A stretch of DNA of 64,000 bases from Balanoglossus misakiensis (lineage: Eukaryota; Animalia; Hemichordata): positions 16,623,903 to 16,687,902 of the forward strand of contig CM082577.2 in NCBI GenBank assembly GCA_040954595.2, given 5' to 3'. A model generated the notes under the pieces. The model made no database searches. It saw only the letters and a program-made list of their open reading frames with translations, and was not told the origin of the DNA. The translations under genes were made by a program, and so were the position numbers. Positions 2,703-15,090 of this stretch are shown piece by piece (position 1 is the stretch's first letter; each line of letters starts with the position of its first letter).

Positions 2703-2957
2703 AAAGCCTCTACAAAACAATAGAAAGCCACTATAAAGCAATCACTTTTAAAAATGCCGAGTAAATCGAGAGGTTGAAATCAGGGTGTAGATATCGAAGT
2801 TCGTAATTCGATTTTCGAAATTCGAATTACGAACAGGGTCTCAAGTGTTTACCAATAGTGTGCTCTTTTACTGGAATGCTAGGGAGCTAGCCACGAACTG
2901 TTGCTACATCATAACATGTGTGACCGTCTTGACATCAACGGAAAGCGTTACCATTGG
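2703..2957 (+). repeat. Left terminal inverted repeat
   Basis: Inverted copy of 14836-15090; contains the internal palindrome gttcgtaattcgattttcgaaattcgaattacgaac (~2798-2833). Confidence 0.9.
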
Positions 2958-4406
2958 AGATCCATTATTTTGTGGCGTTAAACCAGCGCGGGTAACTTTC
3001 CCGCCATACGTATTACACTGTTGTGAACTCTTAGCCAACATGTTCGCTCAAGAAAGAGGATGGAATTTTGGCGCGTACAAATAAAAGAAAGCGAGACGAC
3101 GCGACGTACCGTCCTGAGTGGGTGGTGCTTTCAATAGATCAATGCAGAGAAAAATGAGGTGAACTATTGGATATCGGGGGGGGGGGGGATAGAAAATTAA
3201 CAGATGTTTTCAGGGGGCGAGTACAAGTGGGTTCCAGTTAGCCTCGGGTGAAAAGAAGGAGAAAAAGATATCAAGGAAGCATGATTATCGTGCATCATGA
3301 TGATGCACGAAAAACGATAGAATTACCAGTAAATAACAGCAATAATAATAATACGGAAAGTACGAATTGCCGGCAATGAATTACCACCATCTTTTTAGTA
3401 GAGATATGAAGGAACCCCCCCCCCCCAAACCAATAACCCATGTCCGAAACCGGATACAAGATTATCCACTCCTTTATTGGCAACATACGAGAATTGTACT
3501 GCCACTGTTTCTTTCAAGAACTTTTAATCGATAGGTTTGCAGTCATTTTAATATCACTACAGGAATATGGAACATCCACACTCTGGTTAAACAAGGCACT
3601 TCCTACGGCAAAATCAGCAGCCTGTTAACTGCCCGATACCCAAACATGAGCACAGGTGGCTGTCATTGGTTATCCCTAAGAACGAGCACGAAGTGCGAGA
3701 AGGTCTGAAACGACTTTCGGACACAGTTCAATAAAACGTAACGAAAAAAAAAAAAAATCAATTTTGAGCGACCAAATACATACCCAGAACGATAAAATAT
3801 TCTACTGTGCATTTAATCGCCACCTTCATTAGGTTCCTTATCAGCACTAGCGTGAGTATTTCCCCAAAACTAACAACTGGGACAAAATGTACAAATGCTA
3901 CACAGATCGCCGCCATCTTGAACTACCATATCATCATACTGCGCATGCGTAAGCGTTTACGCATTCACGTTAATTTATTCACGATCTACGTTCTAAAGAT
4001 GGAGGCCATGGAAGAGGCTGTAGTGAACGGACACAATGTCATCATTCTCGGCCAGGCAGGGACTGGTAAAACCCATGCATGTGATAAAAAAATTAGCCAA
4101 AAAAATCAAAGGCAAATATACTATGACAGCTACAACAGGAATTGCAGCCAGTCTCCTGCCTGGTGGGCAAACGATACATCATTTCCTTGGCCTTATATGG
4201 ATGGGCGATTCACTAACACAGAACTCGTTGGAAAGATCAATCACGATACCGAAATGTGTCGTCTAAAAGACAACATATTAAACACCGACGTTTTGTTTAT
4301 TGATGAAATATCGATGTTGTCAGCTAAGACGTTTACACAGGTACGTAAAAAAGTCAAATCAATTTCAAAAAATTCCCAAACAAAACTAAATTGTTTCCCT
4401 GTTGGA

Positions 4407-4588
4407 CACACACACACACACACACACACACACACACACACACACACACACACACACACACACACACACACACACACACACACACACACACACACACACA
4501 CACACACACACACACACACACACACACACACACACACACACACACACACACACACACACACACACACACACACACACACACACACACA
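4407..4588. repeat. (CA)n microsatellite in helicase intron 1
   Basis: About 90 perfect CA units. Confidence 0.98.
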
Positions 4589-6418
4589 TACACACATGTA
4601 TAGAAAGAGAGAGAGGAGGAATTCTAATTCAAGAAACTCCCAATGAATCTAATTCTAAAAGAAACTATCTTTGTGTGTAAACATTGTTACTTTTGATATA
4701 TATTTTTATATTTTTTCTATATTTTTGTACATTCGCTTACTGTCATTAGTATTTAATATAAATTTGTTGTTTTAATATTTTTTTCTAGATTGAAACTGTG
4801 TGTCGGCTAGTGAAAGGTGTTAACCTTCCCTTTGGAGGAATTCAAATCGTACTGAGTGGAGACTTTAATCAGTTGAAGCCTGTGCCAAATGTTAGGTACA
4901 ACGACCCAGGATCATTGTGTATAGATGCTGCACAGTTCAGTGTGTTGATTCCTCATCATTTTGTACTTACAAAAGTACACAGACAGACTGAACGTGAGTT
5001 TATATAAAGGCCACTGGTCCATTTTTTTATTAAGAAAACATACGAACAATTTACATTGGGCAATGCATTACCGATTTATCAACTTAATTGTCATTTGTTT
5101 CATTTGTACAGCTGATCTGATTGAGGCAGTACACCTCTGCTGTCCAGGACGGATTTCAGATAGTGTAACTAAGTTACTAACTCGTCTGAGTAGAAAACTG
5201 CCACCTGGACCGATGGCAATGGAAGGTATGTATTGTGTATACACAAGATGATGAAATATTCACATTGCAATATTGTATTTAATATATATATGTAATTTTC
5301 AGTCTAATACAGTCTGTTCACTGTTTTCATGTAATTTTCACAGCCTAGCTTATACAGTGTGTTCATTGTGTTCGTGTCCATATGAGTTCAATCCTTGTTA
5401 GCCTTGTTTACATAAAAGTTGAAGGGTTTTGCAACTGACAATCCTGCATTAGACTTTCTCCCTCTGGATATTGAAGTCTGTCCTAGTATTACAGCATTTA
5501 CAGATGTGCAGTATGTGGCATAGTTTGGATGCGTTAAAGTTCCATTAAGTAATCCCCTTATTTGGCAAAAGTGGTTCTCTATCACATCTGAATCGAACCT
5601 TGCTGGTACTACATGACTTCCAGGATAAGATGATAGGTGTTTGTCACACACAGCCAAGAATCCTAAAATCAAGGAATCTAGGTCATCTAAGCATTCAGTT
5701 GATGGCAGTTTTCTTGATCGTTTTACCTGCGCTAGTGTACTCTCAAGTGAAGTAACTTGACTTCGCCATTTCAGGAACCAGTTATGTACATCTTTCAATA
5801 CTTCAAGTCTCCCATCAGTCATTGATGTTACAGGTCTTCTGTCACGAAATATAGAAATGAGTTGAGTGGTTTGTTTCAGGAAAGCAATAGTGCCATCTAA
5901 GTGGGTACCATCATCTAGGCTTGACTGGTAGGTCTTCATTAAATGTAGCATTTCACCATTCAGCATGTCTTCTGCTAAATGGTTTCGCATTTTTTCAGCA
6001 TTGTTTGGAGCTAGATGTGTGTCTGTTATTTTGTGGTATATGGGTCGGCTATTCACTTCCCGGTCCCAGATCACAGCACTCTGTAAATGGTCCCAAAGTA
6101 TTTCATTCCCTTGATAGGTCAGTACTCTTGTGTGTTTGCCCTCCTCATGGCCACTGCTCAATACACTATTTCTCAGTTTCTTTACATCATGAGAAAAATC
6201 TTGAACATGAATGATATCTGTACTTGGGTCTATCAAATTTGGGCTTGTGTATTTTGATTCTAGAGGGGAGCCATTGAAGTTGGACTTGATGAATTAACGG
6301 TTTTCTTCTCCGCCATCTTGCATGATGAAGTCAGTGGTGAAGGACCAGTCATGTAACTTTGCAATGATATCCCATAAAATTATGTGTAGTTCAGATGACT
6401 TAATTCCACACGTAGGAT

Positions 6419-13854: not shown

Positions 13855-14562
13855 TACCTATGGTCAATATAAGACATCCAGATTGGTTGTTTCTTCCACT
13901 AGATACATGGATGCTAGGTCGAAAACATTCCCACTCAAAACGTTCAATTGCACAGTGGTGACCGGTGTTTGCAATTGAAATATTTCATCGCATATACGTA
14001 TACGGATCGCCATCCCGACCCCTTGTAGGCCTACCTCCTCAGTTCGACTGACACTGGCCCTGTCGCTGTCTGATCAGACCTTGCACAACTAATTAAATAT
14101 TTATGAAATATAAAGTTTTAACCAATGAGGTACCGGGATAGGATGCAAAACGTTAACGACACTGATTTATTAGTGTGGTTGCTAAGAAGCGCTAATGACA
14201 CTGATCTATTTTAGTGACGTTGCTATATCACAGCGTCCGCTTCGATACCAAAAATCGGTTTAAATGTAGCAATATGTCAACTTTAAGAATGTGCGCGCAC
14301 TAAGAGCGAATCTGTCTCTTTCAATGGTAATATATGGAAAAACCGCTTCATTTTTACACATAGTTCTGTCAAAAGAAATTAATTTTACTGATCGCATAAA
14401 ACTATATGGTCGCCGTGCTTAGCACGTTGACACCGGTGTTTTATTTCCAAAAATGGTATAGTGTTATTGCTGTCAGTATAAACGGCGCTGCGAAATAAAG
14501 CCCCGCAAATAAATAAATAAATAAATGTAAAATGCGGGGGCGCTCCATATCGTGCATGACAG

Positions 14563-14820
14563 GGGGGGGGGGGGTTACTCCCATAGGAAGGTGTCAGTAT
14601 GGGTAAGTGCCACTCGGAAGTGTTACTTTTTCACGGAAAAATCTCCAAACGTGGGTTGTCTTTTCATCCGAAAATCATCATGTACATGGTAAATAAACAT
14701 TTTTTGCTCCGATTTTGTCCCGAACAACGGTTCTGTTTTGACAAAATACATGGGTAGATATGTTTTCAATTCGGGTCGGGTCGCACACCCCCGTACGAAA
14801 ATAGTGGGAGCCTCCCCCTC
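14563..14820. mobile_element. Small degenerate MITE-like insertion with G-rich/C-rich ends
   Basis: Starts ggggg-ttactcccata and ends tagtgggagcctccccc (imperfect inverted ends); lies just inside the right TIR and has no counterpart at the left end. Confidence 0.4.
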
Positions 14821-14835
14821 TGAAAAATGGTTACG

Positions 14836-15090
14836 CCATTGGTTACGCTTTCCTTCGATATCAAGACGGTCACACATGTTATGATGTAGCAACAGTTCGT
14901 GGCTAGCTCCCTAGCTTTCCAGTAAAAGAGCACAGTATTGGTAAACACTTGAGACCCTGTTCGTAATTCGAATTTCGAAAATCGAATTACGAACTTCGAT
15001 ATCAACACCCTTATTTCAACCTCTCGATTTACTCGGCATTTTTAAAAGTGATTGCTTTATAGTGGCTTTATATTGTTTTGTAGAGGCTTG
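14836..15090 (-). repeat. Right terminal inverted repeat
   Basis: Inverted copy of 2703-2957. Confidence 0.9.

Follow-up and report, generated by a model that had tools for sequence, protein, structure and literature searches.

We analyzed a 64,000-nucleotide stretch of the genome of the hemichordate Balanoglossus misakiensis (GenBank assembly GCA_040954595.2, contig CM082577.2, positions 16,623,903 to 16,687,902), referred to here as the window. It contains a transposable element that is bounded by long terminal inverted repeats (TIRs) and encloses two genes, a spliced PIF1-family helicase gene ending in a PHD finger and, antisense within one of its introns, a P-type DDE transposase gene. 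The same gene pair recurs in relatives of the element, where the two genes co-diverge, are fused in one case, and retain conserved DDE and helicase motifs. The features of the element, in window coordinates, are the following.

2704–2957 (+): left TIR arm, the outer ~65–69 bp apparently lost
2799–2834: 36-bp near-perfect palindrome within the TIR, a candidate protein-binding site; mirror copy at 14959–14994
3999–4340 (+): helicase exon 1, with Walker A, motif Ia and Walker B; two frameshifts
4789–4993 (+): helicase exon 2, with motif III (Pfam PIF1 E 9.8e-7; splice junctions)
5112–5225 (+): helicase exon 3, ~20 codons shorter than in relatives (compared with L001 and P0016) and without the motif-IV segment
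5388–6413 (−): transposase 3′ part, with the second catalytic D, DxxH, GTP-binding insertion and catalytic E; one in-frame stop
6414–9050 (−): 5′-truncated L2/CR1-type long interspersed nuclear element (LINE), a passenger with partial apurinic/apyrimidinic endonuclease and reverse transcriptase (RT); 5-bp junction repeat
9051–10333 (−): transposase 5′ part, with an RFX-like winged helix, beta/Cys region, helix-turn-helix (HTH) and first catalytic D; two frameshifts
10514–13020 (+): helicase exon 4, with the 2B domain, motifs V–VI, a helical linker, a domain resembling the P-transposase C-terminal domain (CTD), and a small helical domain
13469–13725 (+): last helicase exon, with the PHD finger (Pfam PHD E 1.4e-7)
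14836–15089 (−): right TIR arm, counterpart of the left arm (inverted-repeat search and blastn)
15090–15158 (−): probable outer stretch of the right TIR (contigs of related copies)

Anatomy of the element

The original prediction put the TIRs at ~255 bp and about 95% identity, and our measurement agrees: the arms are 254 nt long and 96% complementary (blastn E 2e-116). Three contigs of related copies, from two public runs, extend the right TIR and stop at 15158, and the true right end probably lies beyond 15090, at about 15152–15158. P superfamily termini are of the form 5′-CA...TG-3′. A CA-type end would sit at 15152, and the related contigs match six bases beyond it, to 15158. The outer right-end sequence has no match upstream of the left arm (left of 2704). 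Since the right TIR continues to 15158 and has no such counterpart, the left end is probably truncated and the TIR would have measured about 320 bp. With the left end apparently truncated, no target site duplication (TSD) was seen at this locus at any end offset tried, trivial 3-mers apart; elements of the P superfamily have a TSD of 7–8 bp. Across window positions 14981–15158 the related copies are ~7% diverged; they have the outer TIR in common and differ in inner sequence, which suggests non-autonomous derivatives or sister families.

The PIF1-PHD gene lies on the plus strand in five exons, joined by GT-AG junctions that preserve the reading frame. Its pieces match Pfam PIF1 (E 1.8e-4 and 9.8e-7), Pif1_2B (8.2e-6) and PHD (1.4e-7); these matches and the in-frame junctions bear out the claim of a spliced PIF1 helicase gene ending in a PHD finger inside the TIRs. 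Exon 4 has one frameshift near 10724, and its CTD-like domain (~11700–12700) is broken by a poly-Asp expansion. Several helicase relatives have kept Walker A and B as well as motifs III, V and VI intact; in L031 and P0021 these are degraded.

The transposase gene runs on the minus strand from about 10333 to 5388, wholly within the third helicase intron (5226–10513). Its start is uncertain, with an acceptor-like site near 10403, and its 3′ part ends without a CTD. The transposase pieces match P-type Pfam families weakly (TNP-like_RNaseH_N E 4e-4) and are 44–65% identical over the core to full-length relatives, for which the Drosophila P transposase is the only significant match in the Protein Data Bank (PDB). 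The DDE triad and the C/DxxH signature are all present in the window pieces, and the core has the P-type fold with its GTP-binding insertion. Conservation is high among 150 representatives, at the catalytic D (101/106), D (123/125) and E (91/91) as well as the D (126/128) and H (124/127) of DxxH.

The claim of a P/THAP9-type transposase thus stands for the catalytic core. It fails for the N-terminus, where an RFX-like winged helix takes the place of a THAP domain. No THAP Pfam match was found among 34 representatives, most of them complete at the N-terminus, or among 11 members of the alignment, and the THAP pattern occurs in 0 of the 150 representatives. RFX_DNA_binding, on the other hand, matches 16 of the 34 at E ≤ 0.1, three of them above the curated cut-off. 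ESM Atlas gave no usable match for either the transposase N-terminus or the CTD-like stretch. Enrichment of RFX X-boxes was dropped as evidence: half-sites number 6 in the 2.7 kb of element ends versus 31 in the other 61 kb, a post hoc count that includes the TIR site twice. Full X-box sites in the relative loci are not enriched (1 versus 4 expected).

The transposase is split by the 2.6-kb LINE (Pfam RVT_1 E 9e-35; Exo_endo_phos_2 E 1.8e-8). In a contig from public run X2, position 6413 is followed directly by 9051 at a depth of 181, compared with 158–185 in the flanks, so a LINE-free version exists. An X2 contig is also gap-free across the short exon 3, and this version is therefore damaged too. 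Both genes are dead in the window copy: the helicase has three frameshifts, a loss of ~20 codons at motif IV and the poly-Asp expansion, and the transposase has two frameshifts, one stop and the LINE. Subtracting the LINE leaves an element of about 10 kb. Read depth in this species is compatible with one or two loci, which is not a copy count.

Recurrence and co-divergence of the gene pair

We collected 57 relative loci, 55 from metagenome contigs and 2 from genome contigs. A helicase-family match is present in 24 of them, always antisense to the transposase. When only loci with 1 kb or more of sequence past the transposase are counted, the helicase is found in 23 of 29, or in 13 of 17 families when loci are grouped at 85% DNA identity, and most loci without a helicase match are short contigs. 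The six exceptions among the 29 are L003, L015, L017, L033, L036 and L055. L015, L017 and L055 form one clade, with no helicase within 1.9–4.1 kb downstream; this clade may have another layout or may have lost the partner.

Four layouts follow the transposase tree, which was built from 46 rows after removal of 20 near-duplicates and 2 short rows. In the first, shared by the window copy, L001 and L012, the transposase is nested in the same intron with the same phase-1 junction. In the second it is nested in a later intron (L006, L031), and it lies on the same side in L007, L009, L056 and L057. The two genes are arranged tail-to-tail in L025, L028, L032, L039, L042 and L046. Finally, P0008 has both fused in one 1,877-residue open reading frame (ORF).

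The comparison of phylogenies that had been proposed showed that the two genes co-diverge: the transposase and helicase trees have 7 of 10 splits in common, against at most 5 in 10,000 relabellings, and, for the 13 of 25 pairs whose overlap was sufficient, the distances of the two genes are correlated (Mantel rho 0.34, p 0.005). The pair thus recurs across the transposase tree, co-diverges and is fused in one relative, and we are highly confident that the two-gene lineage originally claimed is real. The nesting, the LINE, the decay, the RFX-for-THAP exchange and the likely transfer of the CTD go beyond that original prediction.

Named relatives come from the pearl oyster Pinctada imbricata, the oysters Saccostrea and Crassostrea gigas, and the sea cucumber Holothuria. 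Pinctada imbricata contributes six cluster members for the transposase and two for the helicase, and it also has a second transposase family. Equal longest-contig sizes suggest that the clusters P0005/P0013 and P0028/P0030 lie on shared contigs. The transposase profile retrieved 765 clusters (50% identity) at E ≤ 1e-30, with lineage membership checked for the best 150 only; on these sequence counts the family looks large. L056 and L057 are intron-containing members in contigs assigned to Sedimenticola metagenome-assembled genomes, and most likely represent DNA of animal hosts that was binned with bacterial sequence. Viral contigs yielded no relative, and Rfam no match.

A TIR search in 10 long relative loci and a boundary search across all loci gave nothing convincing. 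In L028, short related sequences at 798–866 and 11012–11075 are inverted and bracket both genes; a related sequence lies upstream of the transposase in L050 (536–614), a possible subterminal repeat.

Likely relocation of the CTD and proposed mechanism

All 81 of 81 transposase cores end within 89 amino acids, and the CTD-like domain sits on the helicase protein; core and CTD-like domain are joined in P0008 only. We consider it likely that the transposase CTD split off onto the helicase protein. Because the helicase protein likely carries the CTD that the transposase is missing, the two proteins would operate together as a bipartite transposase assisted by a motor. Neither Foldseek nor the A6 profile returned a PDB match for the CTD-like stretch, and in its structural model only generic matches were obtained for the initial ~135 residues and for the small helical domain at the end. 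A complex prediction of two cores with the CTD-like domain scored 0.00; it was made without alignments and was not used either way. P0167, which joins a transposase N-terminal half to a PHD finger, was rejected as a second fusion, as a deletion or an assembly error may have produced it. In P0044, PIF1 occurs together with a PF03175 polymerase domain.

The arrangement has a likely origin in a cellular-type PIF1 that would have inserted into the linker between the RNase H core and the CTD of an ancestral P transposase. The fused gene would later have split, with the core moving to a nested-antisense or tail-to-tail position. Guided by its RFX-like winged helix rather than a THAP domain, the core probably cuts and joins like Drosophila P. 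DmTNP without its CTD retains excision and integration, according to the available part of a 2026 preprint, so the core probably cuts and joins alone.

Taken together, we give a probability of about 0.7 to the reading that the window holds a decayed, TIR-bounded element whose P-type core and PIF1-PHD partner, the latter likely carrying the CTD, made up one motor-assisted cut-and-paste machine. Related hosts could contribute to the congruence of the trees, but the genes do lie physically next to each other. The helicase tree, which is without cellular PIF1, splits the family from RepHel helicases weakly (40–61% bootstrap).

The job of the partner can be proposed only tentatively. The solved strand-transfer complex of the Drosophila P transposase has the CTD in contact with both the target and the transposon strand that is looped out, as described in the available text of PMC7776569, and this favors recruitment of the motor to the gapped strand-transfer product. 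The CTD might bring the 5′–3′ motor to this product for disassembly and fill-in. There the motor would remove the transpososome and assist the filling of the gap, and the PHD finger would bias its action toward particular chromatin. Target opening or replicative copying is a less likely role for the helicase. According to PMC7776569, disassembly of the P transpososome and its repair at the target have yet to be investigated, and the portion of the 2026 preprint at hand describes the P transposase CTD as functionally uncharacterized. A natural fusion of the CTD to an ATP motor makes disassembly and repair, as well as the role of the CTD, testable by a two-gene assay. If the proposal is true, it would explain the accessory helicases seen in several DDE superfamilies.

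Alternative explanations

The pairing could be ancient and real with the helicase acting after excision at the donor site, where it would drive the synthesis of long gap-repair tracts on the homologous sister chromatid. Such repair would restore a large (>10-kb) copy, and the helicase would have no stable role in the transpososome. The available text of 10.1101/554550 reports that PIF1 of the fly helps synthesis to cross the gap left by P excision, mainly when POL32 is absent; in the preprint text available, cutting and joining do not require the CTD, and the element is large, about 10 kb even without the LINE. However, the fly effect is slight unless POL32 is missing (same portion of 10.1101/554550), and the CTD of the solved complex is bound to the target DNA and the ends of the transposon rather than to donor flanks (available text of PMC7776569). 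We regard this explanation as the runner-up, and as rather unlikely. Quite improbable is a bolder version of the motor-assisted machine, a widespread animal lineage in which a captured cellular PIF1 was built into a P transposase and later became a separate, CTD-docked motor. Copying from the strand-transfer intermediate would then resemble break-induced replication and make the movement of the element replicative instead of plain cut-and-paste, with the PHD finger picking the chromatin.

Alternatively, an ordinary P-like element may have entered or captured a host PIF1-PHD gene, leaving a chance nesting or cargo. The transposase does sit in an intron, the helicase is cellular-Pif1-like, the read depth is compatible with as little as one locus in this species, and the locus has no TSD. 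Yet no inverted repeat longer than 9 bp surrounds the transposase within the intron, whereas the TIRs enclose both genes. Moreover, the pair occurs in 13 of 17 families at 30–65% protein identity with congruent trees, the helicase bears the CTD-like domain that the transposase is without, and the Pinctada genome has several copies of each gene. This explanation is already largely refuted, and we think it very improbable.

A domesticated, immobile two-gene locus would fit the low copy number and the near-identical loci across several metagenome samples. It is equally improbable, since the TIRs are 96% identical, both genes are decayed in the window copy, the LINE is absent from the contig of another run, and a single sample series contains several diverged families, a single genome several copies.

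Transposon-borne PIF1 is a hallmark of Helitrons, as set out in the available text of PMC8788227. The helicase could thus be the remnant of a nested Helitron, in keeping with the weak split from RepHel helicases and with a Helitron-like element elsewhere in the window. That separate, broken element, at 48285–52792 (−), contains DUF6570, Helitron_like_N and PIF1 and served as a control; its helicase is only distantly related to that of the two-gene element. The family helicase is a PIF1 (Pfam E 1e-25 to 1e-26). Against the solved structures of eukaryotic Pif1 (6HPH and 5O6B, the latter presumably yeast Pif1) P0023 reaches 191 and 175 bits, versus 52 bits against Helraiser; 6HPH is human Pif1, as given in the available text of PMC8788227. 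The Helitron-like helicase of the window reaches only 44–47 bits at best and aligns to P0023 over 144 amino acids only. No HUH Rep family match was found in 13 ORF pieces of the element, and no Helitron_like_N in P0008 or P0023, although the same scan does detect this domain in the control element. With no Rep found and a helicase far closer to cellular Pif1 than to Helraiser, the view that this is not a nested Helitron was upheld, and a Helitron remnant is the least probable explanation of all.

Other features in the window

ORF pieces at 40512–41979 (+) match the viral alkaline exonuclease family and the YqaJ family and might belong to a DNA transposon with a nuclease gene, e.g. of KolobokE type. 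A gag-zinc knuckle ORF at 42976–43791 (+) is followed at 45845–47092 (+) by an RT-looking ORF without a Pfam match, which by eye we take to resemble Penelope elements. Three arrays of a 237/238-bp satellite, with units 90–95% identical, occupy 17306–21180. An exon at 33670–34062 (−) with a GMC oxidoreductase C-terminal match probably belongs to a host gene. Finally, a 321-amino-acid ORF without a Pfam match (54851–55813, −) adjoins a 21-bp tandem array at 56037–56313.

Comparison with known systems

The literature searches, which did not extend to Repbase, Dfam or supplementary tables, found no P-type element with PIF1, and such catalogues could already list the lineage; the available portions of PMC6431247 and PMC10824691 are silent on the pairing. 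Where published DDE elements carry a helicase, it is a RecQ/SF2 enzyme, as far as the available text of PMC9587614, PMC10045372 and PMC10799480 goes.

The element resembles Drosophila P, THAP9 and Galileo (PDB 6P5A, 6PE2; available text of PMC7776569) in its HTH, split RNase H, DDE and DxxH residues, GTP-binding insertion, TIRs, and a CTD-like fold somewhere in the element. It differs from these elements, as described there, in that an RFX-like winged helix replaces THAP, the CTD lies on a second protein, PIF1 and PHD are added, the size is ~10 kb and the TIRs exceed 250 bp. We file it as a distinct P-related lineage with a probably P-like mechanism, in which two canonical features, THAP and the CTD in cis, are absent.

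AcademH and KolobokH likewise pair DDE cut-and-paste transposition with an accessory helicase, which in Kolobok-1_CCri is encoded on the complementary strand (available text of PMC10045372, PMC9587614 and PMC10799480). Those descriptions set them apart: their Academ or Kolobok transposases are accompanied by helicases of the RecQ or DEAD/Helicase_C (SF2) type. The helicase of the present element is an SF1B PIF1 that likely bears part of the transposase. Helitrons (RepHel; available text of PMC8788227) also carry a Pif1-family helicase. In contrast to Helitrons, this element has no HUH Rep, a DDE transposase, long TIRs, and a helicase much nearer to cellular Pif1. PIF1 is thus no longer safe as a Helitron marker. 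Since it is not Helitron-specific, such helicases may be mis-annotated as host PIF1 or as Helitrons; P0021 and P0023 bear host-PIF1-type names.

RAG2 ends in a PHD finger, and is a kelch protein without a helicase. RAG1/RAG2-like transposons, in the available text of PMC7204232, combine two convergent genes, a DDE core and a partner, and provide an analogy only. The partner there is unrelated to the one described here, and the RAG-type core is Transib-type.
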